The notes under the pieces: model-generated | What the model saw: only the letters and a program-made list of their open reading frames with translations | The model's database searches: none | Told to the model about the DNA's origin: nothing | Origin: Candidatus Eiseniibacteriota bacterium | GTDB lineage: Bacteria; Eisenbacteria; RBG-16-71-46; CAIMUX01 | Direction: 5' to 3' | NCBI GenBank assembly: GCA_041390305.1 | Contig: JAWKQE010000005.1 | Span: 144,380 to 208,379 of the forward strand | DNA length: 64,000 nt | Translations under genes and position numbers: made by a program | In this document: piece by piece, positions 791-17,892 of the stretch | Layout: the number at the start of each line of letters is the position of its first letter | How positions within the stretch are numbered: position 1 is the first letter of the stretch

Positions 791-1163
791 TCAGTCCGTG
801 AGAAGGATGAGAAGGAGAAGGACGATGATGACGGCAGTGGCGGAGATGACGATCGTGTCACCACCCGCGAGTTCGTCATCGAGACCAGCAGACTGGTTCG
901 TCACCTGCTGCAGTTCTTCGCCCGAGAGCGTAGCCGCACGTTCACGGGCGAGCTCCATGTCGATTCCGGCCCGCTGGGCCACCCTTTCCACCTGCGGAGC
1001 TGCGAGGAGACGCAGCCTGTGCGTCGATCGCGCTCTGGACGCTCACGGCGTCGGCGATGTGTGCCTGGTTACCGGCGGCAGCCGGAGAGGGGGTCGCGAT
1101 CGCGGACGCGAACGTGAGGTAGGAGAGCGCAACGGGGACAGCGAGACGTCGAGTGCGAGACAT
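791..1163 (-). CDS. Small secreted/membrane-anchored hypothetical protein; likely a frameshift joining ORFs 942..1163 and 791..991
   Basis: Perfect SD (AGGAGG) 6 nt before the ATG at 1163. Signal peptide MSRTRRLAVPVALSYLTFASAIA. The second frame ends in a hydrophobic anchor (AVIIVLLLLILLTD) just before the next gene. The two frames are coherent only if joined. Confidence 0.3.
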
Positions 1164-1515
1164 GGTTCCTCCTGGATTGCGTGTATGGCTCGATCAGTTC
1201 CGAGTGAGGTAACGCAAGGCCCGTGCCATGCGGAACAGCACGGGAAACACCCAGCCGAAGCCAGGCGGTAAACACCTTGCCCTTAGTCGCTTACGAGTGC
1301 CCCCACCCACACAGGGTGTCTACGCCAGGCATGGATGGGAACGGGGTCGCGCCCGGTGTGGCTTGTAACGAATGCACCGGGTTGTAAGCCGGGATGTGTG
1401 TAGGTCGACGCACACGGCTGCGGCATCCTGCGATGCGCCGGGCAGCCGGCGGTGCTACTCTATTGACGTCAACGCGGCATCCGATCGAACCGCACTCCTC
1501 GAGGGAGGAACGGTC

Positions 1516-4011
1516 ATGAGACGCACCGCCTCCGCTTCCGCCTCCGCCTTCGTTCCCGCCTTCGTCACCGACCTCGGATCCGTCCTCGCTTTCGTCACCC
1601 TGCTGGCCGGGCTCGTGGGAACCGCGCACGCCGACCGTCCCTTCGGTCCGAACGTGGGAGGAATGCTCGTTCTCCACGCAAGCACGTCGACCGAGTACAC
1701 CGCGGACGACGACTACTGCGGTCTCTCCGGACTCACGGATTGCGCAAACGCCGTCGTGCGCTCGGACCAGGCGGAACCCGTCGTGATCCACGCGCTGGCC
1801 GCGTTCTCGCCAGAGCAAGGCTCCCGACTCCAGGCATTGGTGTTTGGGATCGACTACGACGCCAGTGTCGCGCTCGAGAACTGGAAGGTCTGCGGCGACT
1901 TCGAACTCCCGCAGGACCAATGGCCCGAGCCCGGAACGGGGGTCGCGGTCACATGGGCCGATGCGCAGACCGACGAACTCGTCGAAGTCTATTGGTTCGC
2001 GGCCTACTCGGCGTACGAACGACCTGGGCACCTGAACCTCGGACCTCACCCAACGCAGGGCGCATTCTTCGCCGACGATTCCGTCCCGGCCTATCTGGAC
2101 CCGATCGTCGCGTTCGGCTCCTTCGGCTTCTACACCGACGGTTTCGTCGCCTGTCCACTGCAGGAGGGAACCTGCTGTTTCGCCGACGGAAGCTGCCAGG
2201 TGCTCTCGCTCGTGGCATGCGAGGAATCAGACGGAACCTACACGAGCTCCGATCCCAGCTGCGATCCGAACCCTTGCCCAGAGCCGGGCCAGGGTGCGTG
2301 CTGCCTCGTGCTGGGAACGTGCGAGTTCCTCTCGGAAGTGGCTTGCACGATCCGAGACGGGAGTTTCCTCGGGCTCGGCGTCGTCTGTGCGCCGAATCCC
2401 TGTCCCGCTCCTTGTGAGCCGTTCCGCTTGGCCGGGCGGCCGAGCACGACACACCGCGCGCCACGAGTCGATCCGTTCTCCTCCGGCTCGTCCCGACGCC
2501 CACGCGTCGGCCCGAACCGGGGCGGCACGCTCGTCCTCCATCTGGACAGCGAGTTCGTCTACTCCGGAAGCGGCGTCCCCGCTGAGTGTGACTTCGGCAG
2601 CGTCGAGACGTGTCGTGACATCGTCGCTCGTGTCGACCAGGAAGATCCCGTGCTCCTCTACGCCGTCGCACTCTTCCCGGAAGGTTCGGAGCCGCGAGTC
2701 GTAGGCCTGACCTTCGGCATCGACTTCCCGGATTGCGTCCAGCTCCTGGAGTGGGAGACGTGTGGCGACTTCGAGGTCCCGAACAGCGATTGGCCCTCGC
2801 CGGGATCGGGAACCGCCGTCACGTGGTCGACCCCACAAGCGGGCACCGCGATCCCGGTCTACGGGTTCGTGGCGTCCGGCTACGCGGCGGAGCCGGGCGA
2901 GTTCGCGCTCGCGCCGCACCCGACTCACGGAGCTCTCTTCGCGGACGACACGGTCCCCGCGATCCTGGACCCGGTGGCGGAGCTCGGCAGCTTCGGATTC
3001 TTCCGAAGCGGGATCGTTCCCTGTCCGCAGCCACAGGACCCGATCGGCGCGTGCTGTCTCCAGGATGGCACCTGCGAGATTCTTACCGATCCCGCCTGCG
3101 CCGCGGCCGGTGGAGAGTTCGTCGGCGTGAACGTCTCGTGCAATCCGAGCCCGTGCGATCCGCCTGTCGATGGGGCATGTTGCTTCGATGACGGCAGCTG
3201 CCGGGCCCTCGACGAGGAGGAGTGCGCGGCACAAGGCGGGTACTTCCTTGGAGACGCCATCCCCTGCGACCCGAACCCGTGTCCCTCTCCCGAACCGTGC
3301 CCGAACTGGCTCTCGTTCGAGGCCCGAATCGAGCTTCGTCGGCAGGCCATCGAAGCCCGGGAACGCTCGGACGTGCCTCACGCCGCCGAGACGGGCCGCC
3401 GGCAGGGGGCAACCGCCCGCCCGGAGACATCGGGACCGTGTGGAACGCTCTACCTCAACGCGGATGGGACGTACGAGAACGCCTACGCCTGGCAGTACGG
3501 CGGGGTCACGCCGCCCAACTACGGGGCGTTCGCCGAGCGGTACTCCACGACGGACGTGAGACCGTGTGCAATCGTCCTCGACTTGGTCGGAGTCGGCAAC
3601 CAACTCCAGCAGACGATGGATCTCTACGCCTGGGACGCTGCGGACGGCCTTCCGGGCCTGGTCCTCGGAGTCCGAACCGGCGTCGATCCAGGATCCATCG
3701 GGATCTGGCCCGACGTCAGTCGCCACGCCTTCGACTTCGTGAGCGACTGCACGGACGAAACGTTCGTCGGCTATTGGGGGAACTGGCCGGATGCGACTGC
3801 CGGCTGGTACGTCGGAGCGGACCTCGACGGGTTCGGCGGCTGCCCCGTCACCCTCGTCGCGCCCGGAATCGGCTACCCGACTGGATGGCACAACGTCTCG
3901 ATCGTCTGGGGCCCGACCCAGGCGATCGGGATCGGTGGCGAGTTCGTCAAGTGCGGCGCGAGTCCGGTCCGTAGGTCGAGCTGGGGTGAGGTGAAAGCCC
4001 TGTTCCGCTAA
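1516..4011 (+). CDS. Giant secreted Cys-rich-repeat protein, paralog 1 (signal peptide, two ~190-aa 'A' modules, 4 six-Cys ~40-aa repeats, conserved C-terminal domain ending SSWGEVKALFR)
   Basis: Start chosen at the internal ATG 1516 with GGAGG SD (conserved GGTCATGAGACGC start context in all three paralogs). Signal peptide MRRTASASASAFVPAFVTDLGSVLAFVTLLAGLVGTAHA. Repeats GxCC..G.C...C..GG...C.PNPCP. Paralogous to 4296..6650 and 8681..11902. Confidence 0.85.
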   Translation: MRRTASASASAFVPAFVTDLGSVLAFVTLLAGLVGTAHADRPFGPNVGGMLVLHASTSTEYTADDDYCGLSGLTDCANAVVRSDQAEPVVIHALAAFSPEQGSRLQALVFGIDYDASVALENWKVCGDFELPQDQWPEPGTGVAVTWADAQTDELVEVYWFAAYSAYERPGHLNLGPHPTQGAFFADDSVPAYLDPIVAFGSFGFYTDGFVACPLQEGTCCFADGSCQVLSLVACEESDGTYTSSDPSCDPNPCPEPGQGACCLVLGTCEFLSEVACTIRDGSFLGLGVVCAPNPCPAPCEPFRLAGRPSTTHRAPRVDPFSSGSSRRPRVGPNRGGTLVLHLDSEFVYSGSGVPAECDFGSVETCRDIVARVDQEDPVLLYAVALFPEGSEPRVVGLTFGIDFPDCVQLLEWETCGDFEVPNSDWPSPGSGTAVTWSTPQAGTAIPVYGFVASGYAAEPGEFALAPHPTHGALFADDTVPAILDPVAELGSFGFFRSGIVPCPQPQDPIGACCLQDGTCEILTDPACAAAGGEFVGVNVSCNPSPCDPPVDGACCFDDGSCRALDEEECAAQGGYFLGDAIPCDPNPCPSPEPCPNWLSFEARIELRRQAIEARERSDVPHAAETGRRQGATARPETSGPCGTLYLNADGTYENAYAWQYGGVTPPNYGAFAERYSTTDVRPCAIVLDLVGVGNQLQQTMDLYAWDAADGLPGLVLGVRTGVDPGSIGIWPDVSRHAFDFVSDCTDETFVGYWGNWPDATAGWYVGADLDGFGGCPVTLVAPGIGYPTGWHNVSIVWGPTQAIGIGGEFVKCGASPVRRSSWGEVKALFR

Positions 4012-4295
4012 CCGCCGGCTCGATGGCCCTGGGACGCCCGGGATTCTGAGCCCGAATCCACCTCCGGCCGAACCCGGGGCCTGGAACGTCTGCACCGGAC
4101 TGTAAGGCAGCACCAACGGGAGGGTCGCTCGTGGTCCTCCAACCCCAAGCGCAACCGAGTGCGCCCGAGTACATCTTCCTGTGACTTCGGAAACTACATA
4201 CGTCCTTTCACAGTCGCCTCGTCGGTCCGCGGCCGGATTGTGATACCCTCGGCAAGCATCATCCATCCGTAGCCGCCTCTCCGAGGAGGGCCGTC

Positions 4296-6650
4296 ATGAG
4301 ACGCTGCCGATCCGGCTCCGCCTTCGCCTCCGCCTTCGCTTCCGCCTACGTCCCGAAACTCGGCGTTCCCCTTTCGATCGCCCTCGCCGCCGCGGTCGGA
4401 GTCGGCGCCCTGACGACGACCGGACTCGCCGCCGGCGGAGAGGTCAGGCCCGGCGCGGGCACGGGCGAAGGCGCCTGCTGCCTTGCGCTCGGATCGTGTC
4501 AGCTCCTCCCGGAAGCGGACTGCGATGTCGCAGGCGGCAGCTTTCTCGGTTCCGGAATCGAGTGCTCTCCGAATCCGTGTCCGCAGCCTTGCGAGCCGTT
4601 CGACTTGGCCGGGCGTCCCAGCACGACCCATCCGGCACCACCATTCGATCCGTTCCGAAGGGGAGCGTCGGACGGCGAACAGTTCGGACCGAACCGCGGC
4701 GGCACGCTCGTGCTCCATCTCGACCCGGACTTCGTCTATTCAGGCGGTGGCCTTCCCGACTGCGAGAGCGCAGGCCTCCAGTCATGCGGTGACGTCGTCG
4801 CACGGGCGGATGTCGAGGGACCCGTGCTGATCTACGCCCTGGCTCTCTTTCCCGAGGGCGCATCGCCACGCCTGACGGGAGTGACCTTCGGAATCGACTT
4901 CCCGAGCTGTGTGCAACTCCTCGAGTGGTCGACCTGCGCCGATTTCGAGATCGCGGATCCCGATTGGCCGACCCCTGGATCGGGAACCGCCGTCGCCTGG
5001 ACGACTCCACAGACGACCCTCGCGGTGCCTGTCTATCAGTTCGCCGCCTCGGGGTACGCTGCCGAGCCCGGAGAACTCGCGATCACTCCGCACCAGGATC
5101 AAGGCACTTGGTTCGCGGACGACAGCGTCCCCGCGATCCTCGATCCAATCGAAGGGCTCGGGAGCTTTGGATTCTTCCGAAGCGGCGTGGTTCCTTGTCC
5201 TCATGTCGGGGCCTGCTGCTTCCGCGACGGGACCTGCCGCGTAGTCACCGCCTCCGATTGCGATGCGGTCGGCGGAGAGTCGTTCGAGCTCGACATGTCC
5301 TGTTCTCCGAATCCCTGTCCGCAGCCGGCGCTGGGTGCCTGCTGTCTCGGAGAGGGAGCCTGCTCCGTGTTGACGTTCGACCAGTGCACCGCGAGCGGGG
5401 GCAGTTACGAGGGAGACGACACGGTGTGCAGCCCGAACCCCTGCCCACAACTCGGAGCCTGCTGCCTCTACGGCGGAAGCTGCATCATCGCAATGGAAGC
5501 GGACTGCGACGGCACGTTCCAAGGGGATGACACGAGTTGCGACCCCAACCCGTGTCCGATCTGGGGGGCTTGCTGCTTCCCGAGCGGAAGCTGCAGCTTC
5601 ACCACCTACTGGACCTGCGGATACTACGATGGAACGTTCCAGGGGCAAGGAACCGAGTGCAGCCCCAACCCGTGTCCACAACCGACAGGCGCGTGCTGCA
5701 TCGGCGAGACCTGTCAGGTCCTCTTGAGATTGGATTGCACCGCCGCCGGTGGCGAGTGGCTTGGTGCGGACTATCCATGTGACCCGAACCCGTGCCTCGA
5801 CCCCGCAGGCGCCTGCTGCTTCGCCGACGGCTCGTGTCTGTTCATCACGGAGTCGGATTGCGAGGCGCAGTTCGGACGGTACTTGTTGGACGCCTACCCG
5901 TGTGACCCGAACCCATGTCCTGTGGGCGGTGGAGACTGCGGATTCCATCTCTCATACGAAAGCCGAGTGGATCTCCGCCGTCAGGTACTCGATGCGCGCC
6001 GGCGCACCGACGTCCTCCCCGCCGTGGAAACCGGCCGCGGGGTGGGTTCCACGCTGGAATCGGGAACGGCGGGGTCCTGCGGATGGATCAAGTTCAACGC
6101 GGACCGAACGTACGAGAACTCCTACGCATGGCAGTACGGAGGCGTCGTGCCGCCGATGTATGGGGCGTTCGTGGAGATCTACGACTCCTATCGGGAGACG
6201 CCGTGCGCGATCGTCCTCGACCTGACTCAGACGGGAGGCGATGCCGGCCAGACGCTGGACCTCTACGCCTGGAGCATTGTCGCGGGTCTGCCGGGGCAAG
6301 TGCTCGGGATCCGAACTGGAGTCGATCCTGGCCCAATCGCGACCTGGCCGTCCGTCAGCGAGCACGTTCTGGAGTTCTCGAGCGACTGCGCCGATTCGAT
6401 GTTCCTCGGCTTCTGGGGAAACTGGCCGGGTGGACCCAGCGGATGGTTCGTGGGCGCCGACCTCGATGGTTTCGGTGGCTGCCCGATGACCAACATAGCT
6501 CCGGGCATCGGCTATCCGACGGGCTGGCAGAACGTGTCGATCGTCTGGGGCCCGACCCAAGCGATCGGAATCGGCGGGGAGTTCATCGAATGCGGCCCGG
6601 TTCCGGTCCAGGAATCGAGTTGGGGCAAGGTGAAAGCGCTCTTCCGGTAG
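4296..6650 (+). CDS. Giant secreted Cys-rich-repeat protein, paralog 2 (one 'A' module, 7 Cys-rich repeats, C-terminal domain ending SSWGKVKALFR)
   Basis: GAGGAGGG SD before the ATG. N-terminus MRRCRSGSAFASAFASAY... followed by a hydrophobic core. Shares the PCPQPCEPFDLAGRPST linker, the A module and the ~300-aa C-terminal domain with paralogs 1 and 3. Confidence 0.85.
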   Translation: MRRCRSGSAFASAFASAYVPKLGVPLSIALAAAVGVGALTTTGLAAGGEVRPGAGTGEGACCLALGSCQLLPEADCDVAGGSFLGSGIECSPNPCPQPCEPFDLAGRPSTTHPAPPFDPFRRGASDGEQFGPNRGGTLVLHLDPDFVYSGGGLPDCESAGLQSCGDVVARADVEGPVLIYALALFPEGASPRLTGVTFGIDFPSCVQLLEWSTCADFEIADPDWPTPGSGTAVAWTTPQTTLAVPVYQFAASGYAAEPGELAITPHQDQGTWFADDSVPAILDPIEGLGSFGFFRSGVVPCPHVGACCFRDGTCRVVTASDCDAVGGESFELDMSCSPNPCPQPALGACCLGEGACSVLTFDQCTASGGSYEGDDTVCSPNPCPQLGACCLYGGSCIIAMEADCDGTFQGDDTSCDPNPCPIWGACCFPSGSCSFTTYWTCGYYDGTFQGQGTECSPNPCPQPTGACCIGETCQVLLRLDCTAAGGEWLGADYPCDPNPCLDPAGACCFADGSCLFITESDCEAQFGRYLLDAYPCDPNPCPVGGGDCGFHLSYESRVDLRRQVLDARRRTDVLPAVETGRGVGSTLESGTAGSCGWIKFNADRTYENSYAWQYGGVVPPMYGAFVEIYDSYRETPCAIVLDLTQTGGDAGQTLDLYAWSIVAGLPGQVLGIRTGVDPGPIATWPSVSEHVLEFSSDCADSMFLGFWGNWPGGPSGWFVGADLDGFGGCPMTNIAPGIGYPTGWQNVSIVWGPTQAIGIGGEFIECGPVPVQESSWGKVKALFR

Positions 6651-6872
6651 GGCACGGGATCCGGCACCCGCGGGGTGGTGGGCTCCCAGGGCGTGAAACG
6701 GATGGGCGCAGGCAGGGCTGCGCAGAACGGCCAATCCTGCTCCCATCGCAGTCACGACGAATTCGCGGACCTATCGCGCCGAGCGCCGATGAGTTCCGGC
6801 CGCCACACCAGTCCAACGGGTAGTTGGTGGGCTCTCGCCCACGATCCACCGTCAGCTACTCAGGAGGACCCC

Positions 6873-7313
6873 TTGTCCAGCGTCAGCACATACCTCAACT
6901 TCAACGGCAACACCGCAGAGGCGTTCGATTTCTACAAGTCGGTTTTCGGAACGGAGTTCGCCGGCCCCATGATGCGCATGTCGGACCTTCCCCCGATGGA
7001 AGGCATGCCGCCGGTCGCCGAAGCCGACAAGAACATGGTCATGCACGTGGCGCTCCCCATCCTGGGCGGCCACATGCTCATGGGCACCGACACGAGCGAG
7101 AGCTGCGGGGGTCGGATTGCCAACTTCGGCAACAACGTCCACATCAGTCTCCAGCCGGATACCCGCCAGGAGACCGAGCGCCTCTTCTCGGCCCTCGGCG
7201 ATGGAGGCACGGTCACCATGCCGCTCGCGGACATGTTCTGGGGGGACTACTTCGGTTCCCTGACCGACAGGTTCGGCGTCCACTGGATGTTCAACTGCGG
7301 CGAGAAGAAGTGA
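6873..7313 (+). CDS. VOC (glyoxalase/PhnB-like) family protein
   Basis: TTG start with AGGAGG SD. Motif STYLNFNGNTAEAFDFYKSVFG...MFWGDYFGSLTDRFGVHWMF is typical of PhnB-like / 3-demethylubiquinone-9 methyltransferase-like VOC proteins. Confidence 0.7.
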   Translation: MSSVSTYLNFNGNTAEAFDFYKSVFGTEFAGPMMRMSDLPPMEGMPPVAEADKNMVMHVALPILGGHMLMGTDTSESCGGRIANFGNNVHISLQPDTRQETERLFSALGDGGTVTMPLADMFWGDYFGSLTDRFGVHWMFNCGEKK

Positions 7314-7442
7314 TCCCGTAGCGGAGTCTGCGTTGCGGGCGCGGACGGGTCGATCCGTGGGCGGTCCGTTCGCGATCCGCTGGCGCTCCGGGATGCGACT
7401 TCCCGGGCCGAACCGAGCTCGGCCCCCGGCGCGTTCGTGCTC

Positions 7443-7485
7443 GGATCGTAGGAGCCGTGGGCGGCAGGTCCGCCCGCGGCTCTTC
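7443..7485 (+). terminator. Possible rho-independent terminator (GC hairpin + CTCTTCCCTTTC) in the convergent intergenic region
   Basis: GCCGTGGGCGGCAGGTCCGCCCGCGGC hairpin followed by a T-rich tract, between the convergent VOC and PP2C genes. Confidence 0.25.
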
Positions 7486-7489
7486 CCTT

Positions 7490-8557
7490 TCAGGAGAAGG
7501 TGCAGACGAGGACGGTGACGTCGTCCTCGACCATTCCGCGTGCACGTTCCGTGGCGAGATCGGGCAGTGCCTCACAGATCCGGTCCGGATCCGCACTCCT
7601 CGTCTCGTGCGCGCATCGAGCGATGGCGTCACTCGAGAGACCGTCACTCTCCGCGTCCATGGCAACATCCTGGAGTCCGTCGCTGAAGAGCACGAGGCGA
7701 TCGCCCGCACTCCAGGCCACCGTCTGCGGGACGTGTGGCACGCCGTCGAGCATTCCGACCGGGAGGCCTGCGGAGGCCAGTTCCTCATACGAACCGTCCG
7801 CGTGGATCAGGAGTCCGGCAGGGTGTCCCGCATTGACCGCGGTCAGGGTCTCCGTCTCCGTGTCGATCGAGACGAGAAGCAGGGTCGCGAACTCTCCTGG
7901 GCCCGTGTCGGCCACGAGTACGCGGTTCAGTTCGCCGACGATCTGGGCCGGCTCCAGGTGCTGTCGCGCGAGAAGATGGAACTGGGACCGAAGCCCCGCC
8001 ATGAGAAGCGCTGCCGGCACTCCCTTTCCGGCGACATCGATCACGAGGAGGAGAGGGCGACCATTCGCGTCCAGTGTCACGTCCCAGTAGTCGCCGCCGA
8101 TGACCCGTGCCGGGCGGGTGTGCCCGGCACAGGAGAAGCGCGGGCCCTGCGGAACCGATGTCGGAAAGAGTCCGGCCTGGATGCGGGACGCAACGGCCAG
8201 CTCGCCTTCGCGATCCCTGCGTTCGAGGAGCAGGTAGCTCACGACGAAGTCGTACAGCACGAAGAGGAAGACCAGGTTCCCCGCCATGAAGAGGGCGGTC
8301 CGCGTCTCGAGGCCGAGTGCGCCGCCGAAAATTCCGATCGCGATCCCCCAGACTGCCCACGCGAGAAGGAAGGCCCACCGAACACGGGGCCGCAGCCACT
8401 GCGTGGCCCCGAGCCCGGTGAGACTCGCCTTGGCGGCGGCCTTGACGTAAGCGCGGTTGAGACTCAACGTCCGATCTCCCCCTTGGAACCGGCCCGTACC
8501 GTTCGGCCCACGGAAGCTGGGTCCGCCGAGGGTACGCGACCCAGCAGCGGCGTCCAT
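7490..8557 (-). CDS. Membrane-anchored PP2C-type Ser/Thr phosphatase (SpoIIE/RsbU family)
   Basis: Internal ATG chosen at 8557 (MDAAAG...). Upstream part of the track ORF overlaps the paralog-3 leader and looks like a shadow ORF. Three predicted TM segments, then a GGDYWD...DVAGKG...FSDG PP2C catalytic signature. Confidence 0.7.
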   Translation of the reverse strand: MDAAAGSRTLGGPSFRGPNGTGRFQGGDRTLSLNRAYVKAAAKASLTGLGATQWLRPRVRWAFLLAWAVWGIAIGIFGGALGLETRTALFMAGNLVFLFVLYDFVVSYLLLERRDREGELAVASRIQAGLFPTSVPQGPRFSCAGHTRPARVIGGDYWDVTLDANGRPLLLVIDVAGKGVPAALLMAGLRSQFHLLARQHLEPAQIVGELNRVLVADTGPGEFATLLLVSIDTETETLTAVNAGHPAGLLIHADGSYEELASAGLPVGMLDGVPHVPQTVAWSAGDRLVLFSDGLQDVAMDAESDGLSSDAIARCAHETRSADPDRICEALPDLATERARGMVEDDVTVLVCTFS

Positions 8558-8680
8558 CCCCGACTTTCGAAACGGTGATGGCCGCTCGGCCCTCCTTCCG
8601 TGAGCAGCAGCGGTCCGGGTGCTAACATTGAAGACGTTCTCGCGCACCTGCCCCCAAACCGCTACCTGGGAGGATCGGTC

Positions 8681-11600
8681 ATGAGACGCTCCACTCCCGC
8701 CTTCGCCTCCAACTTCGCTTCTACGTTCGTGTCCCTCACCTTCGTCATCCTGCTCTGTGCCGGACTCGCCTCCCCACCGGACGTCCTCGGCTGGGGTGGA
8801 CCGAACGAAGGAGGGACCTTGATCCTCCACGCCGACACGGGGACGGTGTACACGGAGGACGGTGAGTACTGCGGCCTTTCCGGACTCGCCGACTGCGGCA
8901 GTGCCGAGGTCCGGGTCGAACAGGCCGAGCCGGTCGTCGCACACGTCCTCGCCGCTTTCTTCCCCGGCTCGGGCCCGCGCCTTTCCGGCCTCGTCTTCGG
9001 CATCGACTATCCGGCGAACATCGTTCTACTCGGCCACGGGGCGTGCGGCGATTTCGAACTCCCGCAGGACGACTGGCCCGCGTCTGGAAGTGGAACCGCT
9101 GTGACCTTCGCCGAGGCCCAGACCGACGATCTCGTCGAGGTCTACTGGTTCGCGGCCTACTCCGAGTACGCGCAACCGGGTCGCCTGGAACTGGGTGCCC
9201 ATCCGACCCAGGGTGGGCTGTTCGCCGACGACTCCATCCCAGGCTACCTCGATCCGATCGCCGGCTTCGGCGCGCTCGGCTTCTCCACCGACGGGACTCT
9301 CGTCTGCCCGGCCTCCCCCGGCGCCTGCTGCTTTGGCGACGGTAGCTGCGAACTCCTCCGTCAGGATCCATGCGAGGTTCTGGAACACGGCACCTGGTAC
9401 CCGGACGTCACGTGCGATCCGAACCCGTGCCCTCCACCTCAGTACGGTGCGTGCTGCTTCGAGAGCGGAAACTGTCAGTTCACACTCGAAGAAGCCTGCG
9501 GAACGGCGGGCGGAACATGGTTCGTGGACGTTCCCTGTGATCCCAACCCCTGTCCACGCCCACCCGAGGGTGCGTGCTGCTACGACAACGGTAGCTGCGT
9601 CGTCCGCACGGCCTACGAGTGCGAGGACACCTACGGCACGTACCAGGGCGACGAGACGTCGTGCGACCCGAACCAGTGTCCACAACCGGAAGGTGCGTGC
9701 TGCTTCCCGAGCGGAGAGTGTGAAGTCCTCACCCCGGACGAGTGTGACGGCGCCGGCGGCGGCTACCAGGGCAACGGCACGCTCTGCGAACCGAACCCGT
9801 GCACGGTAGAGACCGAAGGCGCGTGCTGCCTGACCCTCGGATCGTGCGAGTTCCTTCCGGAGTCGGTGTGCGGTACGGAAGGCGGCGCGTTCCTCGGCGT
9901 CGGAACTCTCTGTTCCCCGAATCCGTGTCCACAGCCGTGCGAACCGTTCGATCTGGCCGGACGCCCGAGCACCAGCCTTCCGCGACCAGGCGTCGATCCG
10001 TTCCGGACCGGCACCCGGCGTGACGATCAGATCGGTCCGAACGCAGGAGGCGTTCTCGTCCTCCATCTCGGCCCTGCCCTCGCCTACTCGGAGGACGGAT
10101 TCCGCACGGACTGTGACCTGGGCGGCGGCATCGATGGATGCGAGGACATCATCGCCCGCACAGACCAGGAGGAACCGGTCCTCGTCTACGCGGTCGCACT
10201 CTTCCCGACCACCTCGGCACCCCGCCTCCTCGGGCTCACGTTCGGGATCGACTTCCCCGACTGTGTGCAGCTCCTGGAATGGGAGTCGTGCGGAGACTTC
10301 GAGATCGCGGACGACGACTGGCCGTCGCCCGGGTCTGGAACCGCGATGACTTGGACGGCGCCACAGAGGGACTTCGCCGTTCCGGTCTACAGGTTCGTCG
10401 CGTCGGGACTCGCGGCGGAACCGGGTGAACTCGCACTCGCCCCTCATCCGACGCAGGGCGCGGTCTTCGCGGACGACAGCGTCCCCTCGATCCTCGACCC
10501 GATCGCCTCGCTCGGGAGCTTCGGCTTCTTCCGCGACGGAGTCGTCCCGTGTCCGCAACCGCAGGAAGCCATCGGCGCGTGCTGCTTCGACGACGGCACC
10601 TGCCGCATCCTCACCATCCCGGGATGCAGCGACGCGGGCGGGGATTTCTTCGGCGTCAATGTCGCGTGCACCCCCAACCCATGTCCGCAACCGCCCGAGG
10701 GTGCGTGCTGCCATGCGGACGGAGTCTGCAGAGTCCTGACGCTCAGCGACTGCACATCGAGCGGCGGTGGCTACCTCGGAAACGATACGACGTGCGATCC
10801 CAACCCCTGTCCACAACCGGGCGCGTGCTGCTTCCCGAGCGGCAACTGCTCGATCCTCCAGGAGTCCGACTGCGGCGTCCACGGCGGAACCTTCCAGGGC
10901 GACAACACGACCTGCTCCCCCAATCCCTGTCCGCAGCCGACCGGAGCCTGCTGCATCGGCGAGACGTGCGAAGTCCTGACCGCGGGCGACTGCTCGAGTT
11001 CGGGCGGCTCCTGGTTCGGTGCCGACTATCCATGCGACCCGAACCCATGCCTCGAAGGCGTCGGCGCGTGCTGCTTCTCCGACGGCTCCTGCCGCTACCT
11101 CAGCGAGTCCGAGTGCGCAGACGAAGGCGGAAGCTATCTGGCCGATCAGGTCCCGTGTGACCCGAACCCCTGTCCTACCGGTGGAGAGGGATGCCCGGGC
11201 TGGATGCCGTTCGAGACCCGGATGGAGCTCCGGAGGCAGGGAATCGAGGCACGGGCACACTCCGATGTGCCGTACGCCACGGAGACTGGACGCGCGTCCG
11301 GAAGGACGAGCGGGCTCGGGACGACGGGAAGCTGCGGAACGCTCTACTTCAACGCCGATGGCACCTACGAGAACGGGTACGCCTGGCAGTACGGCGGCGT
11401 CGAGCCTCCGATGTACGGCGCATTCTCGGAGTGGTACTCCGCGGCGAGTCTGAAGGTATGCGCGGTCGTACTCGACCTCACGACGACCGGCGAACCTGCG
11501 GCGACCATGGACCTCTACGTCTGGGGCAACGACCATGGCTATCCCGGCGTCGTCCTCGGACTCCGGACCGGTGTCGACCCGGGCGCGATCGCGTTCTGGC

Positions 11601-11902
11601 CATCGGTGAGTCGTCACTCCTTCGCGATCTACGCCGACTGCGCCGACGAACACTTCGTCGGATACTGGGGAAACTGGCCGGGCAGTTACCCCAGCTGGTA
11701 TGTCGGCGCCGACCTGGACGGCTTCGGCGGGTGTCCACTCACGAACATCGCGCCCGGAATCGGCTACCCGACCGGATGGCAGAACGTGTCGGTGGTCTGG
11801 GGGCCGACGCAGGCCATCGGCATCGGCGCGGAGTTCGAGGAGTGCGGCACGATCCCCGTACAGGAGTCGAGCTGGGGGAAGGTGAAAGCGCTCTTCCGCT
11901 AG
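8681..11902 (+). CDS. Giant secreted Cys-rich-repeat protein, paralog 3 (two 'A' modules, 10 Cys-rich repeats, C-terminal domain ending SSWGKVKALFR)
   Basis: Internal ATG 8681 with GGGAGG SD and the same GGTCATGAGACGC context. N-terminus MRRSTPAFASNFASTFVSLTFVILLCAGLASP. Architecture collinear with paralog 1 but with more repeats. Confidence 0.85.
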   Translation: MRRSTPAFASNFASTFVSLTFVILLCAGLASPPDVLGWGGPNEGGTLILHADTGTVYTEDGEYCGLSGLADCGSAEVRVEQAEPVVAHVLAAFFPGSGPRLSGLVFGIDYPANIVLLGHGACGDFELPQDDWPASGSGTAVTFAEAQTDDLVEVYWFAAYSEYAQPGRLELGAHPTQGGLFADDSIPGYLDPIAGFGALGFSTDGTLVCPASPGACCFGDGSCELLRQDPCEVLEHGTWYPDVTCDPNPCPPPQYGACCFESGNCQFTLEEACGTAGGTWFVDVPCDPNPCPRPPEGACCYDNGSCVVRTAYECEDTYGTYQGDETSCDPNQCPQPEGACCFPSGECEVLTPDECDGAGGGYQGNGTLCEPNPCTVETEGACCLTLGSCEFLPESVCGTEGGAFLGVGTLCSPNPCPQPCEPFDLAGRPSTSLPRPGVDPFRTGTRRDDQIGPNAGGVLVLHLGPALAYSEDGFRTDCDLGGGIDGCEDIIARTDQEEPVLVYAVALFPTTSAPRLLGLTFGIDFPDCVQLLEWESCGDFEIADDDWPSPGSGTAMTWTAPQRDFAVPVYRFVASGLAAEPGELALAPHPTQGAVFADDSVPSILDPIASLGSFGFFRDGVVPCPQPQEAIGACCFDDGTCRILTIPGCSDAGGDFFGVNVACTPNPCPQPPEGACCHADGVCRVLTLSDCTSSGGGYLGNDTTCDPNPCPQPGACCFPSGNCSILQESDCGVHGGTFQGDNTTCSPNPCPQPTGACCIGETCEVLTAGDCSSSGGSWFGADYPCDPNPCLEGVGACCFSDGSCRYLSESECADEGGSYLADQVPCDPNPCPTGGEGCPGWMPFETRMELRRQGIEARAHSDVPYATETGRASGRTSGLGTTGSCGTLYFNADGTYENGYAWQYGGVEPPMYGAFSEWYSAASLKVCAVVLDLTTTGEPAATMDLYVWGNDHGYPGVVLGLRTGVDPGAIAFWPSVSRHSFAIYADCADEHFVGYWGNWPGSYPSWYVGADLDGFGGCPLTNIAPGIGYPTGWQNVSVVWGPTQAIGIGAEFEECGTIPVQESSWGKVKALFR

Positions 11903-11978
11903 GGGCGCAGATCACGACTCATTGCCGAACGTCTCGCCGCGCACCTCCGGGCGGAGGATTGGTGGGACGTTCGGAATC

Positions 11979-12008
11979 TCTATGAACCCCGCCTCCGGAG
12001 TTCATAGA
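11979..12008 (+). terminator. Hairpin (9-bp stem TCTATGAAC/GTTCATAGA) downstream of paralog 3; possible terminator
   Basis: Inverted repeat read directly from the sequence. A second small hairpin CCTCCGggcGGAGG lies at 11944-11958. Only a weak T-tract follows. Confidence 0.3.
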
Positions 12009-12199
12009 AACTCTGAACTCGGGCCACACCGACGGTTGGAACCGCTTCGAAACCCTCGCGCCGTCCGAACCTGACGTAGGCAACGGGCCCTGGCGACTCT
12101 ACCTTCATGGAGCCAGTTGGGTCAGATTCGAAAGATGGACGGCGTCGACGGAGTGCAGCCCTCCGCCGACGCCGCGCTATCGAGATCGGGGGGGGAATC

Positions 12200-13706
12200 G
12201 ATGCGCGGTAGCCGCCGCTCGCTTCTGTTCGTGCTCTTTGCGACTCTGCTCGTCAGTTGCTCCGATGACGACCACCCGGTCACGCCGACCCCGACGGATC
12301 CCTACCCTGTTCCCGAAGGCGCCAACGTCGTCCTCCAGTGGAACTCCGCCGCCCTCCAGGCCATCCGCGACGCGAAGCCGGGGCCGCCCCAGGCGGCGCG
12401 ATCCCTCGCGGTCGTGCACACCGCGATCTACGACGCCTGGGCCGCGTTCGACGATGTCGCCGTCGGCACCCGGTATGTCGACGCCCTCCGTCGTCCGGCC
12501 GAGGAGCGCACGGAAGGGAGAAAGGCGGCCGCGATCAGCTACGCCGCGTTCCGCGCGCTCTCCGATCAGTTCCCTTCCGAGGCTCCCGAGTTCGAGGCTC
12601 TCCTCGAGACCCTCGGCTACGACCCGAACGAGAGGACGACGGACCGAACCCTCCCGGAGGGGATCGGGAACGTCGCGGCGGCGGCCGTGCTCGCCTTCCG
12701 GCACGGGGATGGCTCGAACCAACTCGGCACGCTCTCGAACGGCGTCCCGTACGGCGACTACACGAACTACGTAGCGAAGAACCCGCCGATCCGCGTGACC
12801 GAACCGTCCAGCCTGGACGACATGCCGTTTCCCGGCTCGTGGCAGCCGCTCATCTTCACGAACCAGGCAGGGCAGGAGGTGACTCCGGCCTTCATCGCCC
12901 CCCATTGGTGGAACGTCGTTCCGTTCGCGATGACGAGCCCGTCCCAGTTCCGCCCGGCACCGCCGTCTGCCGTCGACAGCGAGGTGTTCCGCCGCGAGGT
13001 GAACCAACTCATCGAGATGAGCGCGAACCTCACGGACGAGCAGAAGTGCATCGCGGAGTACTGGGCAGACGGCCCGAACTCCGAACTCCCCCCGGGACAC
13101 TTCGATCTCTTCGGCCAGTTCGTCTCGCAGCGCGACGCACACACCCTCGACGACGATGCGAAGATGTTCTTCGCCCTCACCAACGCCGTCTTCGACGCGG
13201 GAATCGCGGCGTGGGATGCCAAGCGGTACTACGACTACTGTCGGCCGGTGAGCGCGATCCGGCACATGTACCACGGGCAGACGATCCGGGCCTGGGCCGG
13301 CGCCGGACTCGGCACGCAGGACATCTCCGGCGAGACGTGGAAGCCCTACCAGCCGGACTACTTCCCCACGCCACCGTTCCCCGAGTACGTCTCCGGCCAC
13401 AGCACGTTCAGCGCGGCCGCCGCGGAGGTGCTCCGGTCCTTCACGGGAAGTGACCAGCTGGGATTCCAGGCCCACTTCCCCGCCGGATCCCTTCGCGCCG
13501 AGCCGGGAGTCGCGCCGTCGGTCGACGTCACGCTCGATCTCGCTACGTTCACGGACGCTGCGGACCAGGCCGGCATTTCGCGCAGGTACGGCGGCATCCA
13601 CTTCGAAGAGGGCGACCTCCGGGCGAGAGCGATGGGTCGCAACTGCGGCGTGGTCGCCTGGCAGAAGGCGCAGTCGTACTTCGACGGCTCCGCCACTCGG
13701 CCCTGA
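12200..13706 (+). CDS. Vanadium-dependent haloperoxidase / PAP2-superfamily acid phosphatase-like lipoprotein
   Basis: Lipoprotein signal MRGSRRSLLFVLFATLLVSC. PAP2 / V-haloperoxidase active-site motifs K..RYYDYCRPVSAIR, SGHSTFS and SRRYGGIHFEED. Confidence 0.7.
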
Positions 13707-13820
13707 GCACCTGCCCCGAGCTCGCGTGAAGCCCAGAGCCGCGGCACCCACTCGCCGCAGGCTCCGGGCGCCCGGGCAAGCCACTCCCCTGGGGACCGTG
13801 GCTTGCCCGGCGGGGCCTCC

Positions 13821-14984
13821 TCAGCGCAGCCGGACCACTCGGGAATCGGCGCTTCCGTCCGCGGTCGCGACACGAACGTAGTACACGCCGTCCGCAACGC
13901 TCCTCCCCATAGCGTCCGCGCCGTCCCACTCGAGGACGACATCGCCCGTCGCAGAACTCCCGGAGAGCGTACGGAGCAGACGCCCGGCGGCGTCACAGAT
14001 CGAGACGACCGCACTCCCCGTCACGGACGAGAGCTCGACCCGCGTCTTCTCGCGAAACGGGTTCGGCACGAGCGAGACTCGACCGGACCAGGGCTGGGCC
14101 GCTCCCTCCTTCACGTCCGCGGGATCGCCCAGGAGAACGCGACGCACGAGATTCTGCGACTGGAACCAGAGCGTCCTTCCGTCCTTCGAGAGTGCGAGGC
14201 CGTTCGGAGAGTCGATGAGTGCGGACTCAGCGGGCCCGTCCGTCGTTCCGGGCACACCGGTTCCCGCCAACGTGGTGTAGGTGCCGTCGACGGTCGAGAC
14301 GCGATAGATCTGGTGCGTGTCGAGCCCGGCCACGTAGAGGAAGCCGCTCCGGTAGTCGATGTACCCGGTCTTCGTTCCCGGGAGAGTCACGAGCACGGAT
14401 TCGTTCCCCGCAGGATCCACCTTCGTGATCGTGGGCGTGAGGAAGCTCGCGACGTAGACGTTCCCCGCCTCGTCCAGAGCGATCCCGTCGGGCGCTACGA
14501 TCGTCGATCCGTCCGCCACGACCGTTCGGTCACCGGAGACGGTATCGATCCGGATGAGCTGTCCCAGGTTGTAGCTCGCGGCGTAGAGCGTCTGCTCGTC
14601 CGGCGTGAACACGAGTCCGGTCGGCGTCACGATTCCGGTCGCGAACACCGAGATCGTGCCGTCGGCCGCGATGCGGTGGATGTGGTTCGCATTGAAGCAG
14701 GAGACGTAGTAGTCGCCGTTCGCGGCCACCGCTCCCCCGAGCGGAAACTGGAAGCCCGATCCGATCTCGGTGAGCGTCCCGTCGAGGTCGAGACGAAAGA
14801 CCAGATCTCCGGCCGGGTGACTCGGAAGGAACAGATTCTCGTTCGGCCCTACGGAGATGTCCTCGAACCGTGCGGGCATCTCGGCGAACGTCTCGACGGT
14901 GGCCGCACGGGTTGGAGTGGAAGTGAAGAGCGAGGCCAGCCCGAGAACCGGGACAAGGCGCACGGCACGACGACCGACATGCAT
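13821..14984 (-). CDS. NHL/SMP-30-like beta-propeller protein with FlgD-like/T9SS-type C-terminal sorting domain
   Basis: Internal ATG 14984 with GGAGG SD. Signal peptide MHVGRRAVRLVPVLGLASLFTSTPTRA. Repeated YV(A/S) propeller blades. C-terminal ...GVYYVRVATADGSADSRVVRLR. Confidence 0.65.
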   Translation of the reverse strand: MHVGRRAVRLVPVLGLASLFTSTPTRAATVETFAEMPARFEDISVGPNENLFLPSHPAGDLVFRLDLDGTLTEIGSGFQFPLGGAVAANGDYYVSCFNANHIHRIAADGTISVFATGIVTPTGLVFTPDEQTLYAASYNLGQLIRIDTVSGDRTVVADGSTIVAPDGIALDEAGNVYVASFLTPTITKVDPAGNESVLVTLPGTKTGYIDYRSGFLYVAGLDTHQIYRVSTVDGTYTTLAGTGVPGTTDGPAESALIDSPNGLALSKDGRTLWFQSQNLVRRVLLGDPADVKEGAAQPWSGRVSLVPNPFREKTRVELSSVTGSAVVSICDAAGRLLRTLSGSSATGDVVLEWDGADAMGRSVADGVYYVRVATADGSADSRVVRLR

Positions 14985-15101
14985 GGTTCGACCTCCGATC
15001 ACCCGGATCGAACCCTGAGCCCCGACGCCCCGCGTGAGGTGCGTCGTGCGCGTGAGTCTCTCCGGCGACCCAATGGGTGGGTCCACCCCGGCAGGACCAC
15101 G

Positions 15102-16280
15102 CTAGCGGGGCGGGCGGCGCACCGGCTTTGGAGATCGTTCGAATTCGGCGGCGCACGCCCGCGTCAGGGCACTGAGCAGCCGGACGGAGTCGTCATCGAC
15201 GGCGCGCTGGGAAACGCGCGACGGAGGCTCGTCGAACCACTCGCGGAAGGACGCGCTGAAGTGGCTACCATCCGAGAAACCGAGCCCGAGGGCAAGGTCG
15301 GTAAGGCTTCCTCGGTACTCGGGAAGCCGGTCGTAGGCCGTCCGCAGGCGGAGCTCCCGTACGAACTCGTGGACCGTCTGCCCCGTCATCCGGCGAAAGA
15401 CTACACAGAAGTGGGCCGGAGCCACGCCGACGGCGCGGGCGATCTCGGCGAGCCGGAGCGGCCGCGAGAGGTGCGCCCCGATGTACTCCTTCGCCTCCTC
15501 CACGACCTCCCGATGATACCGCGTCGTCGAGGCCTTGCTCGGCCGCGTCGTCGAGGCCTTGCTCGGCCGCGTCGTCGAGGCCTTGCTCGGCCGCGTCGTC
15601 GAGGCCTTGCTCGGCCTCGTCGTGTGGAGGCCTTGATACGCCGTCGCGAGCAGGTGACGGAGCAGCAGGACACCGGTCTCTTCTACGACGAGCGGGTCGG
15701 GCTCGTCGGCCGAGGCCGCATAGTCGAGGAGGAGGCGATGGATCCGGAACGCCGGTGTGTCGAGCGCAATGCCGACGGCGGGAAACGGAGCCGCCTCACG
15801 GTCCGACGCTGCCGGATCCCAAGCCGACGCTACCTCTCTCACGAGCGTCGGATCGAAGGCGAGGAAGTCGTTGGCCAGGTCCGCGCGGTACCGAGGATCC
15901 CGACGGAAGGGCGTGCCCGGATTGATCAGCAGTGCCCCCGCGACCGAGGCGAAGAGCCGCTCTCCCGGCTCGAGGAGGTCGATGACGTACGAACGCCGGG
16001 GGAAGGAGAGCGTGGCCCAGGACGCCGTGCGCGCATCGCTGCCCCAGAGCGGAGACCAGTGCGCCGTCTCGACGACGCCCAGGCGCACCAGTGGAGTCGT
16101 GCACAGTGTTTCTTGGACGACGCCGTCGCAGCCGGGGGGAAGGGCTTCGGTCCAGGCTGAGGTGTCGGCGTGCGCGCTGGTACGGGGGAGATCATATGTC
16201 TGCCCGTAGCCTTTGACGCGAGTGCCAGCGCGAGGTCGGCGACGCGCGGGACGTGCGGGATTCGGAGCGCCATCAGGCAC
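15102..16280 (-). CDS. AraC-family transcriptional regulator containing an in-frame (TTRPSKAS)x4 tandem repeat; start uncertain
   Basis: C-terminal HTH_AraC (LAEIARAVGVAPAHFCVVFRRMTGQTVHEFVRELRLRTAYDRL...FSDGSHFSASFREWF). A 24-bp DNA repeat x4 at 15523-15618 encodes the linker. Confidence 0.7.
   Translation of the reverse strand: MPDGAPNPARPARRRPRAGTRVKGYGQTYDLPRTSAHADTSAWTEALPPGCDGVVQETLCTTPLVRLGVVETAHWSPLWGSDARTASWATLSFPRRSYVIDLLEPGERLFASVAGALLINPGTPFRRDPRYRADLANDFLAFDPTLVREVASAWDPAASDREAAPFPAVGIALDTPAFRIHRLLLDYAASADEPDPLVVEETGVLLLRHLLATAYQGLHTTRPSKASTTRPSKASTTRPSKASTTRPSKASTTRYHREVVEEAKEYIGAHLSRPLRLAEIARAVGVAPAHFCVVFRRMTGQTVHEFVRELRLRTAYDRLPEYRGSLTDLALGLGFSDGSHFSASFREWFDEPPSRVSQRAVDDDSVRLLSALTRACAAEFERSPKPVRRPPR
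15523..15642. repeat. 24-bp direct tandem repeat x4 (+ degenerate 5th) GTCGTCGAGGCCTTGCTCGGCCGC inside the AraC regulator CDS
   Basis: Seen directly in the sequence. Units 1-3 are perfect, unit 4 has one mismatch. In frame, encoding TTRPSKAS repeats. Confidence 0.95.
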
Positions 16281-16330
16281 GGATCGGTATCTCCTCGATG
16301 AACCCCGGCAGGGAGTCCATCATACCGCAT

Positions 16331-16360
16331 CCGAGTCCGAGTCCGAGTCCGAGTCCGAGT
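16331..16360. repeat. (CCGAGT)5 hexanucleotide microsatellite in the AraC promoter / lipoprotein 3' intergenic region
   Basis: Seen directly in the sequence. Confidence 0.95.
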
Positions 16361-16412
16361 CCGGACCAGCGGCACCTGTCCCTGGTTCGCACGAACAGGA
16401 ACTCTGCCACTC

Positions 16413-17036
16413 CTACTGAGCGCTGAGCTGGCATCGACCCGTCGCGTCCCTGCGGAAGTCGACCGACCAGATGTGGCGCCCGGGAGCGACCGGCACGTCG
16501 TCCAAACCCAGGTCGCAACCGGCACCCCAGGACCATCCGGTCACGAAGAGCTGGAGGACGTTCGGCACGTCGGTCGCAACTTCGATCTCGTAGGTACCGT
16601 TGATGGGCGTCTCGATGGAGACGGCCATGAACTGGTCGTAGTCGAAGTTCCTGGGACCACCGAACTCCTGCCCGTAGCTGCGCGCAGTGTTGGGAATCTC
16701 GTGGACGGCATCGGTATCGAGACGGCCAAACGGGTCGCTGACCTCGACCGTCGTCATGCTCTTCGAGGCAGACACCTGGAAGACGAGCCGGTCGCCCTCC
16801 GTGGGCTGGGCTTCGTCAGCCGGCCCTTCGTCTCCCGGCCTCGTGAGGTCCATGGTGGAAAGCGCCCGGTCCGGAACCGGAAACGTCGCGTCCGAAGTGC
16901 GAGGCATGTCGTCCGAAATGGGAGGCATCCAGTCGGGGATGGAGGGTACCGACTCCGACGAGGAGTGCGAGGAGGTCGCACATCCCCAGAACGGGGCGGA
17001 AACGGTCAGGACGAGAACGATGCCTCGCATCCCCAT
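16413..17036 (-). CDS. Hypothetical lipoprotein
   Basis: Internal ATG 17036 (MGMRGIVLVLTVSAPFWGC lipobox). Upstream portion of the track ORF runs through a degenerate repeat array and is R-rich. Confidence 0.5.
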   Translation of the reverse strand: MGMRGIVLVLTVSAPFWGCATSSHSSSESVPSIPDWMPPISDDMPRTSDATFPVPDRALSTMDLTRPGDEGPADEAQPTEGDRLVFQVSASKSMTTVEVSDPFGRLDTDAVHEIPNTARSYGQEFGGPRNFDYDQFMAVSIETPINGTYEIEVATDVPNVLQLFVTGWSWGAGCDLGLDDVPVAPGRHIWSVDFRRDATGRCQLSAQ

Positions 17037-17189
17037 GACTGCGGCAGCCTCCCAACCTGCGGCGGAGAACTCGTACGTACGGCACTGCGGACGCCGCGCC
17101 TCGAAACGCGAGTGTACCTGCCTGTTCGCAATCCGGCGAGAGGCGCGGTCACGTCGCGGCCAACGCTCCCGATGTGCGCAAGGGCGGTG

Positions 17190-17590: not shown

Positions 17591-17892
17591 TAGACTCGGC
17601 GCGCGGCATGTCGCGAGTGGGACACGCATTCTGCTTCTCGTCGCGCACCTTGGCACGATCGGGACCCCGGCGCCACCGGTCCGCGCGCCACTCGGACCCC
17701 CGCCCCACAAGTGGCACTCCGACCGCTCGGACCAGATCGGAAAGAAAACACAAACGCGCATGTATCCGACAGCGTCGCGCACGCCCATTGAGTCAGCCCT
17801 CTCCCTCTTGTGAATGGACGCGAGTCTCGATCGAACGATGGAGACAAAGGGTCGCCTCTACTTCGTGCTGGACGGACAAACAGAACCAGAGA

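Follow-up and report, generated by a model that had tools for sequence, protein, structure and literature searches.

We analyzed a 64,000-nt stretch of DNA (hereafter, the window) from a Candidatus Eiseniibacteriota bacterium (GenBank assembly GCA_041390305.1, contig JAWKQE010000005.1, positions 144,380 to 208,379 of the forward strand), which encodes near its start three paralogous, cysteine-rich proteins with signal peptides, here designated P1, P2, and P3. The open reading frame (ORF) list of the window contains three long ORFs on the (+) strand with stops at positions 4011, 6650, and 11902; their start codons (1516, 4296, and 8681) each lie 6 to 7 nt past a GGAGG within the context GTCATGAGACGC, a conserved setting that the initial annotation of the window had already recognized. 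Translation from these starts yields products of 831, 784, and 1073 aa, identical in length to the NCBI records R3E97_05475, R3E97_05480, and R3E97_05495 of a Candidatus Eisenbacteria metagenome-assembled genome (MAG). These records either match at 100% identity or are listed on the same 251,689-bp contig, and all are described as hypothetical proteins. The lengths first given for P1 and P3 (879 and 1100 aa) are those of the longest ORFs, with starts at 1372 and 8600, and at 784 to 1073 aa the proteins do not merit the epithet "giant." The GC content is 63 to 70% all along the window, and a scan of positions 1000 to 12500 for promoters and terminators returned nothing above shuffled sequences.

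The three proteins are collinear strings of the same parts (Table 1): a signal peptide (SP), one or two copies of an "A" module, arrays of a six-cysteine repeat (r, followed by the number of copies), a common linker, PCEPF(D/R)LAGRPST, and a C-terminal region (C). Specifically, P1 reads SP-A-r2-linker-A-r2-C, P2 reads SP-r1-linker-A-r6-C, and P3 reads SP-A-r5-linker-A-r5-C. This shared anatomy had been described from the outset and is borne out by the ORFs, the sequences, and regular-expression searches, except that the C-terminal region measures ~241 aa instead of ~300 aa; in it, a helix and a ~175-aa globular core precede a 17-aa tail, which we refer to as the tag. Across the family, the signal peptide cleavage pattern is AxA followed by GPNAGGTL.LH. 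Two other export routes were considered and rejected, namely a Tat signal (P1 to P3 have no S/TRRxFLK motif) and a lipoprotein signal (there is no lipobox, and the ILLC of P3 has L at position −1).

None of the four parts (A module, repeat, C domain, and tag) has a family model. Pfam-A gave no match at E ≤ 1 for P1, P2, or P3, NCBIfam gave none at the same threshold besides one chance match (E of 0.31), a search of PDB sequences with the paralogs returned nothing meaningful, and we found no paper on cysteine-rich proteins of Eisenbacteria. The initial statement that the repeat and both domains are unrecognized thus stands for sequence families but not for folds, as both globular parts have recognizable predicted folds (see below). 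Judged by sequence, P1 to P3 appear to be tandem paralogs of a large unannotated family typical of Candidatus Eisenbacteria: a protein search with P2 returned more than 1,000 relatives, and all those with an organism name belong to Candidatus Eisenbacteria. We built our own hidden Markov models (HMMs) for the A module, the C region, and the repeat, and a HMMER search of 1.84 billion cluster representatives with the A profile found 1,730 clusters at E ≤ 1e-3, a number that falls to 1,137 at E ≤ 1e-10 and to 580 at E ≤ 1e-30, the proteins carrying up to three A modules each; clusters were counted at 50% identity, and 1,730 is a lower bound. More divergent A-like modules, at the N termini of three proteins (P0075, P0083, and P0088) and in an ORF of locus L225 (GGAFVAHYVAELTYSSDPP..., SALLIHVQPVTGTC...), are missed by this HMM, and the A superfamily is therefore probably wider than the clusters counted.

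The A module spans ~175 aa. An AlphaFold2 (AF2) model of the P2 A module with two repeats, calculated from a 32-sequence alignment, reached a predicted local distance difference test (pLDDT) score of 94 and a predicted template-modeling (pTM) score of 0.80, and Foldseek matched the A model to the cohesin 2vo8 (E of 2e-5, probability of 1.00, target TM of 0.70). The predicted fold is the nine-stranded flattened beta-sandwich of jelly-roll topology seen in cohesins. Compared with known cohesins (2vo8, 1ohz, and 2xdh; PF00963), however, sequence identity is only 4 to 14%, and the A module is longer (~175 versus ~140 aa), begins with a near-invariant GPN.GG.L.LH, has several conserved Cys positions, and also occurs singly on subtilases that are cargo of the type IX secretion system (T9SS). 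In three A-module subtilases (Peptidase_S8; P0192, P0195, and P0239), the A module directly follows the signal peptide and precedes the S8 domain; in a fourth, P0168, it comes after the S8 domain. Three of these four end in a T9SS-type FlgD_ig/Por_Secre_tail domain.

The AF2 model of the P2 C region (pLDDT of 83) consists of a helix, a jelly roll, and the tag. The predicted jelly roll is lectin-like or carbohydrate-binding module (CBM)-like, sharing its beta topology with the lectin-like domain of Cwp84 from Clostridioides difficile (4ci7) and with galactose-binding-like CBMs (CBM32, CBM35, and discoidin) at 5 to 14% identity; the domain has no Pfam match, and a profile search of the PDB yielded nothing related. 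In some relatives, the ~175-aa C core stands directly behind the signal peptide and is, therefore, an independent module; across the family, it is placed N-terminally, internally, or C-terminally. The module orders that our HMMs found in relatives included A r..A r..C, C r..C r..A r C, A r.. alone, and A alone, and pure repeat arrays were joined to multicopper oxidase, S8 and C1 peptidase, FlgD_ig, and Por_Secre_tail domains.

The feature of widest reach, overlooked in the initial annotation, is the tag. Its consensus, (V/T)P(V/T)xxx(S/T)WGx(I/V)Kxx(F/Y)R, makes up the last 17 residues and ends at the free C terminus. Among the 120 best homologs, 77 end in the tag (with R, K, or H as the last residue), its W, G, and K being invariant, and in 57 of these 77, the stop falls exactly one residue past the F/Y. 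A motif search of 250 proteins (181,910 residues) found 115 occurrences: 86 lie at the exact C terminus, another 26 fall no more than ten residues from it, and the remaining 3 are located elsewhere; in the window, there are three occurrences, on P1 to P3 only. No hydrophobic span is present in the last 30 residues (...GPVPVQESSWGKVKALFR). The tag matched no Pfam or NCBIfam model in P1 to P3 or in the tag-bearing ORFs scanned (see below), and a literature word search found nothing. We rejected the tail as an outer-membrane beta-signal, as it ends in (F/Y)(R/K/H) instead of an aromatic residue and there is no barrel.

The tag extends well beyond the A-module family. Metagenome contigs scanned with the DNA pattern TGGGGNNNNATCAAGNNNNNNTWCCGNTGA, which corresponds to WGxIKxx(F/Y)R-stop, yielded at least 120 loci (L118 to L237). 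Among at least 121 ORFs ending in the tag pattern, 110 of the 121 listed have no A, C, or repeat modules. In nearly all listed tag ORFs, the W is preceded by S/T, and in many, (T/V)P stands a few positions farther upstream, features that the search pattern did not specify; a signal peptide was present in all ten ORFs inspected for one. Family scans of 17 tag ORFs revealed right-handed beta-helices, a plastocyanin-like domain, NHL propellers, and CBM96, along with the NCBIfam choice-of-anchor V domain (NF041895), ScyF-like NHL proteins, and a DNRLRE domain, while nine of the 17 had no family match in the libraries used. The best NCBIfam model for the ScyF-like ORFs is named as a PEP-CTERM protein, and the choice-of-anchor V ORF has a weaker match to a MYXO-CTERM-anchored family. 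The GC fraction of the listed loci ranges from 0.40 to 0.75, indicating that several lineages are involved.

Of a further 115 A-module proteins, 47 ended in the tag and at least 25 in a T9SS-type C-terminal domain (CTD), and in several of the CTD-ending proteins Pfam recognized Peptidase_S8 together with FlgD_ig/Por_Secre_tail. This alternation on the same module family places the tag in the position of established sorting domains. Like the T9SS CTD (PF18962/TIGR04183, FlgD_ig-like) and the PEP-CTERM and MYXO-CTERM signals, the tag is strictly C-terminal on unrelated families with signal peptides, and some of its carriers have best-matching NCBIfam models named for a C-terminal anchor. It differs from the T9SS CTD, a folded beta-sandwich of ~80 aa (about 70 to 100 aa), in having only 17 residues; P1 to P3 carry no such CTD, the tag following straight after the jelly roll with no Pfam or NCBIfam CTD match. 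Substrates of exosortases, archaeosortases, and rhombosortases combine a short motif, a hydrophobic transmembrane helix, and a basic cluster. No C terminus of this tripartite type is present on P1 to P3, nor did any NCBIfam sorting-signal model match them at E ≤ 1. On this evidence, we tentatively propose that the tag may be a widespread, undescribed C-terminal signal for sorting or anchoring, served by an unknown machinery and used by Eisenbacteria and further uncultured lineages as an alternative to the T9SS CTD. If so, P1 to P3 would be among the cargo of that pathway.

The six-cysteine repeat occurs exactly 4, 7, and 10 times in P1, P2, and P3, respectively, each copy being 35 to 38 aa long with six Cys, for a total of 40 to 77 Cys per protein. 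Its canonical 38-aa spacing, CC-x3-G-x-C-x7-C-x13-C-x-P-x2-C, written as a degenerate DNA pattern, has 17 matches in the window versus 0.00 expected from 100 shuffles. Exactly six Cys are present in 1,268 of 1,308 distinct repeats collected, and the modal length is 38 aa. Both models draw the repeat with a strand (ACCF), a second strand (CxVLT), a short helix (xxDCxxxGG), a third strand (xFxG), and a CxPNPCP tail, at high confidence (pLDDT of 85 to 97 for the mini-fold), and the six Cys presumably form three disulfides. The initial annotation had read the unequal copy numbers as ongoing expansion. We found instead that almost every repeat is closest to its positional counterpart in another paralog, with P1r2 = P2r1 = P3r5 before the linker, P1r3 = P3r6 after the second A module, P1r4 = P2r7 = P3r10 before the C region, and P2r6 = P3r9. 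In addition, DNA identity between repeats does not exceed 72% (45 to 68% for adjacent repeats). Recent or ongoing expansion is not supported on either count, and the copy-number differences among the paralogs are, as judged from these comparisons, old gains or losses.

A scan of one genome per GTDB species with the canonical-repeat DNA pattern gave at least 114 loci. Among the matches listed, multicopy loci belong to Candidatus Eisenbacteria/Eiseniibacteriota, to Planctomycetota (Phycisphaerae, Planctomycetaceae, and Isosphaeraceae), and to MAGs deposited with no phylum name. Single matches in other phyla mostly go unrecognized by the repeat HMM and look like chance, the exceptions (one to four HMM-confirmed repeats) being a few MAGs labeled Gammaproteobacteria, Acidobacteriota, Bacteroidetes, Ignavibacteriales, or Halobacteria. 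The family is not local, with the A module in at least 1,730 clusters and the repeat also common in Planctomycetota. Secreted enzymes of Planctomycetota/Phycisphaerae (L003, L007, L030, L040, L088, and other loci) carry the same repeat, by our HMM and by canonical spacing, in arrays of 1 to 18 copies. Unlike in the Eisenbacteria paralogs, these arrays link catalytic domains (trypsin, reprolysin M12, and multicopper oxidase), and the proteins terminate in dockerin/EF-hand-like tails (...LLAAWGPCP) and lack the A module, the C domain, and the WGxIK tag; Pfam annotates neither the repeat nor the tails in these carriers. The repeat thus appears, by its sequence contexts, to be a generic spacer used by two phyla.

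Models of described bacterial Cys-rich repeats in NCBIfam and Pfam (e.g., the Myxococcus cysteine-rich repeat) did not match P1 to P3, with their 4 to 10 repeats, at E ≤ 1, and no repeat model matched the Planctomycetota carriers; judging by the libraries and papers searched, both the repeat and the tag appear to be undescribed. A profile of 139 diverse bacterial repeats, searched against 177,635 distinct PDB sequences, matched only iRhom1 and iRhom2 (8snl, 9xy4, 9q7y, and 9o58; E of 9e-4 to 0.02), which is marginal significance for a Cys-rich profile of 38 positions. The matching stretches, two in iRhom1 and one in iRhom2, lie in the iRhom homology domain (IRHD). In the better stretch, all six Cys align (CC-x6-C-x7-C-x13-C-x4-C versus CC-x5-C-x7-C-x13-C-x4-C), as do the G-x-C, T, and G-x-(F/Y) positions; the repeat at window positions 10574-10687 serves as an example for the comparison. 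Both the IRHD and, presumably, the repeat are extracytoplasmic and disulfide stapled. Unlike the tandem repeats, the IRHD is a single globular domain with eight disulfides, as reported in a cryo-electron microscopy study of iRhom2/ADAM17, which also noted that its structure "appears to be unprecedented," with nothing similar in the PDB or the human AlphaFold database (PMC11248996). The six-cysteine repeat may be a free-standing bacterial relative of the submodules that build the IRHD, which we regard as a lead and not a finding, or the likeness may reflect convergence on a Cys pattern.

The genes surrounding the paralogs are included in Table 1. As initially annotated, a membrane PP2C phosphatase (a SpoIIE/PP2C gene with two hydrophobic segments) lies within the cluster and a V-haloperoxidase-like lipoprotein (DUF6851 plus VCPO_2nd, with the lipobox LLVSC) follows it. 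We see no evidence of a functional link between the phosphatase gene and the paralogs; it is probably a bystander, as SpoIIE genes are frequent in this genome (a second one carries a fused response-regulator receiver) and the surroundings of family members vary from genome to genome. In three other genomes, family members occur singly or in tandem arrays, once five in a row, and some of these loci (L115 and L116) have Ser/Thr kinase or SpoIIE genes close by, probably by coincidence, such genes being common here. At one locus (L117; contig_16400, 683 kb; positions 5348-19000), five consecutive (+)-strand genes with no Pfam match (935, 469, 1328, 620, and 833 aa) include at least four family members (P0013, P0114, P0011, and P0068), an array larger than that of the window.

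Elsewhere in the window, we found three more FlgD_ig-CTD proteins in addition to the downstream propeller, an S8 peptidase, two UvrA-like genes, an SBP_bac_5 protein, and a GAF histidine kinase. The 64 kb thus hold four secreted FlgD_ig-CTD proteins (13821-15086 [−], 35434-37608 [+], 38826-40628 [−], and 61801-62973 [−]), indicating that T9SS-style and tag-type cargo coexist in this genome. The UvrA-like ABC ATPases are encoded at 25052-29887 (−), in a 1611-aa ORF of about twice the usual UvrA length, and at 41973-45113 (+), in a 1046-aa ORF. Within the AraC-family gene (about 15500-15800), the perfect tandem peptide repeat TTRPSKAS (four to five copies; RRGLARPR, four copies, on the opposite strand) reflects a 24-nt tandem DNA repeat inside the regulator gene.

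Table 1. Window positions of the paralogs, their modules, and neighboring genes
Feature	Positions	Strand	Basis
Paralog 1 (831 aa, R3E97_05475): SP, A, 2 repeats, linker, A, 2 repeats, C domain, tag	1516-4011	+	
P1 Sec-type signal peptide (MRR..., hydrophobic core, ...TAHA then D)	1516-1632	+	Sequence; family-wide AxA/GPNAGGTL cleavage pattern
P1 A module copy 1, predicted cohesin-like fold	1633-2166	+	Own HMM; fold via homology to modeled copy
P1 six-Cys repeats 1-2	2167-2406	+	Regular expression; DNA pattern
P1 conserved linker APCEPFRLAGRPST...	2407-2505	+	
P1 A module copy 2	2506-3045	+	Own HMM
P1 six-Cys repeats 3-4	3046-3285	+	Regular expression; DNA pattern
P1 C region: helix, predicted lectin-like jelly-roll domain, tag	3286-4008	+	
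P1 C-terminal tag ...PVRRSSWGEVKALFR-COOH	3958-4008	+	
Paralog 2 (784 aa, R3E97_05480): SP, 1 repeat, linker, A, 6 repeats, C domain, tag	4296-6650	+	
P2 six-Cys repeat 1, positional ortholog of P1 r2 and P3 r5	4470-4583	+	Regular expression; repeat comparison
P2 linker QPCEPFDLAGRPST...	4584-4679	+	
P2 A module, AF2-modeled copy (pLDDT 94), predicted cohesin-like	4680-5207	+	
P2 six-Cys repeats 2-7	5208-5921	+	Regular expression; DNA pattern
P2 C region, AF2-modeled (pLDDT 83): helix, jelly roll, tag	5922-6647	+	
P2 C-terminal tag ...PVPVQESSWGKVKALFR-COOH	6597-6647	+	
Paralog 3 (1073 aa, R3E97_05495): SP, A, 5 repeats, linker, A, 5 repeats, C domain, tag	8681-11902	+	
P3 A module copy 1	8789-9319	+	Own HMM
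P3 six-Cys repeats 1-5	9320-9931	+	Regular expression; DNA pattern
P3 linker QPCEPFDLAGRPST...	9932-10033	+	
P3 A module copy 2	10034-10573	+	Own HMM
P3 six-Cys repeats 6-10	10574-11176	+	Regular expression; DNA pattern
P3 C region: helix, predicted jelly-roll domain, tag	11177-11899	+	
P3 C-terminal tag ...IPVQESSWGKVKALFR-COOH	11849-11899	+	
VOC/glyoxalase-like gene, between P2 and P3	6675-7313		
SpoIIE/PP2C gene, two hydrophobic segments, between P2 and P3	7490-8944	−	
DUF6851 + VCPO_2nd lipoprotein, lipobox LLVSC, downstream	12117-13706		
SGL/NHL propeller with FlgD_ig CTD, downstream	13821-15086	−	
AraC-family regulator, downstream	15102-16280	−	
Second SpoIIE phosphatase, fused to response-regulator receiver	50318-51835	+	

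With moderate confidence, we read P1 to P3 as Sec-exported, disulfide-stabilized, nonenzymatic binding proteins of the cell surface or extracellular space, in which the six-cysteine repeats would act as rigid spacers and the tag as a sorting or anchoring element. Proteins of this general kind, i.e., modular secreted proteins with beta-sandwich binding modules on spacers, are known. In such a scheme, the signal peptide would carry the protein across the inner membrane, the repeats would oxidize in the periplasm, and the tag would direct sorting or retention at the cell envelope or surface, a role held in relatives by the T9SS CTD. Each protein would be a string of independently folding modules, with the first A module starting at the mature N terminus in proteins of the P1 and P3 type, and the 38-residue repeat would form a stiff, protease-resistant mini-domain held together by its six invariant Cys. 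The beta-sandwich modules, held off the cell on Cys-repeat stalks, would bind protein or glycan ligands, such that the proteins would work as adhesins or scaffolds, not as enzymes.

Several observations weigh against this interpretation. The proteins could remain periplasmic, and a binding role for the A modules and the C domain is a generic expectation, beta-sandwich folds being promiscuous. The Pfam Cohesin model did not match P1 to P3 at E ≤ 1, and a profile of the A module plus repeats retrieved no cohesin from PDB sequences at E ≤ 10; since sequence profiles do not reach cohesins, the A module is cohesin-like by predicted fold only. Moreover, the tag has no transmembrane segment, we know of no processing enzyme or machinery for it, and no accessory, secretion, or sorting gene is shared across four contexts (the window and three other genomes).

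Three alternative explanations bear on different parts of the proteins. The tail could be an amphipathic basic peptide that serves as a passive, noncovalent anchor (to lipopolysaccharide, the outer membrane, or exopolysaccharide) or mediates self-association, with the proteins forming an envelope-associated or S-layer-like coat. Its W, I/V, L, and F/Y would fall on one face, opposite K and R. In favor of this reading, the tail is short, lacks a hydrophobic span, and terminates in (F/Y)(R/K/H), AF2 models residues 272 to 279 as helical with low confidence, neither the window nor the three other contexts showed a sortase-like gene in the vicinity, and multigene tandem families are typical of surface coats. 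We nevertheless consider a passive anchor rather unlikely, as recognition by a dedicated machine would better explain both the strict need for a free C terminus (placement is exact in 86 of 115 occurrences) and the invariant W-G...K, and the tag replaces T9SS CTDs and sits on families with best-matching NCBIfam models named for PEP-CTERM or MYXO-CTERM.

Less likely again is that the paralogs are scaffoldin analogs, whose A modules would be true cohesins binding a dockerin-like partner or the tag and thereby assembling cellulosome-like surface complexes. One to three A modules split by spacers, together with a CBM-like jelly roll, do recall the classical scaffoldin layout, the same Cys repeat occurs in Planctomycetota enzymes with dockerin/EF-hand-like tails, and the tag is carried by many different secreted proteins. 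However, there is no sequence-level link between the A module and Cohesin, no Dockerin match was found in any Eisenbacteria protein scanned (relatives as well as about 28 ORFs of the window), and the presence of A singly and N-terminally on T9SS-cargo subtilases is more like that of a CBM or targeting module. A metal- or redox-active role for the Cys arrays, as in a metallothionein or a thiol buffer, could be prompted by the high Cys content of the proteins and by Planctomycetota relatives in which repeats stand beside multicopper oxidase domains. We regard it as very improbable, given that the proteins are exported, that each repeat has exactly six Cys at fixed spacing in a confidently predicted compact alpha/beta mini-fold, and that repeats are found on unrelated enzymes (trypsin, M12, and S8), as expected of a generic linker.

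Eisenbacteria are uncultured bacteria commonly found in soils and sediments. The locus described here offers a structural interpretation of at least 1,730 currently unannotated protein clusters, and it supplies three reusable modules as potential family models, i.e., the cohesin-like A module, the six-cysteine spacer shared with Planctomycetota enzymes, and the lectin-like C domain. If the link to the IRHD were true, the repeat would provide the first relatives for an orphan eukaryotic domain. A tag pathway, if confirmed, would constitute an unknown secretion or anchoring route and would make surface proteomes predictable from sequence.

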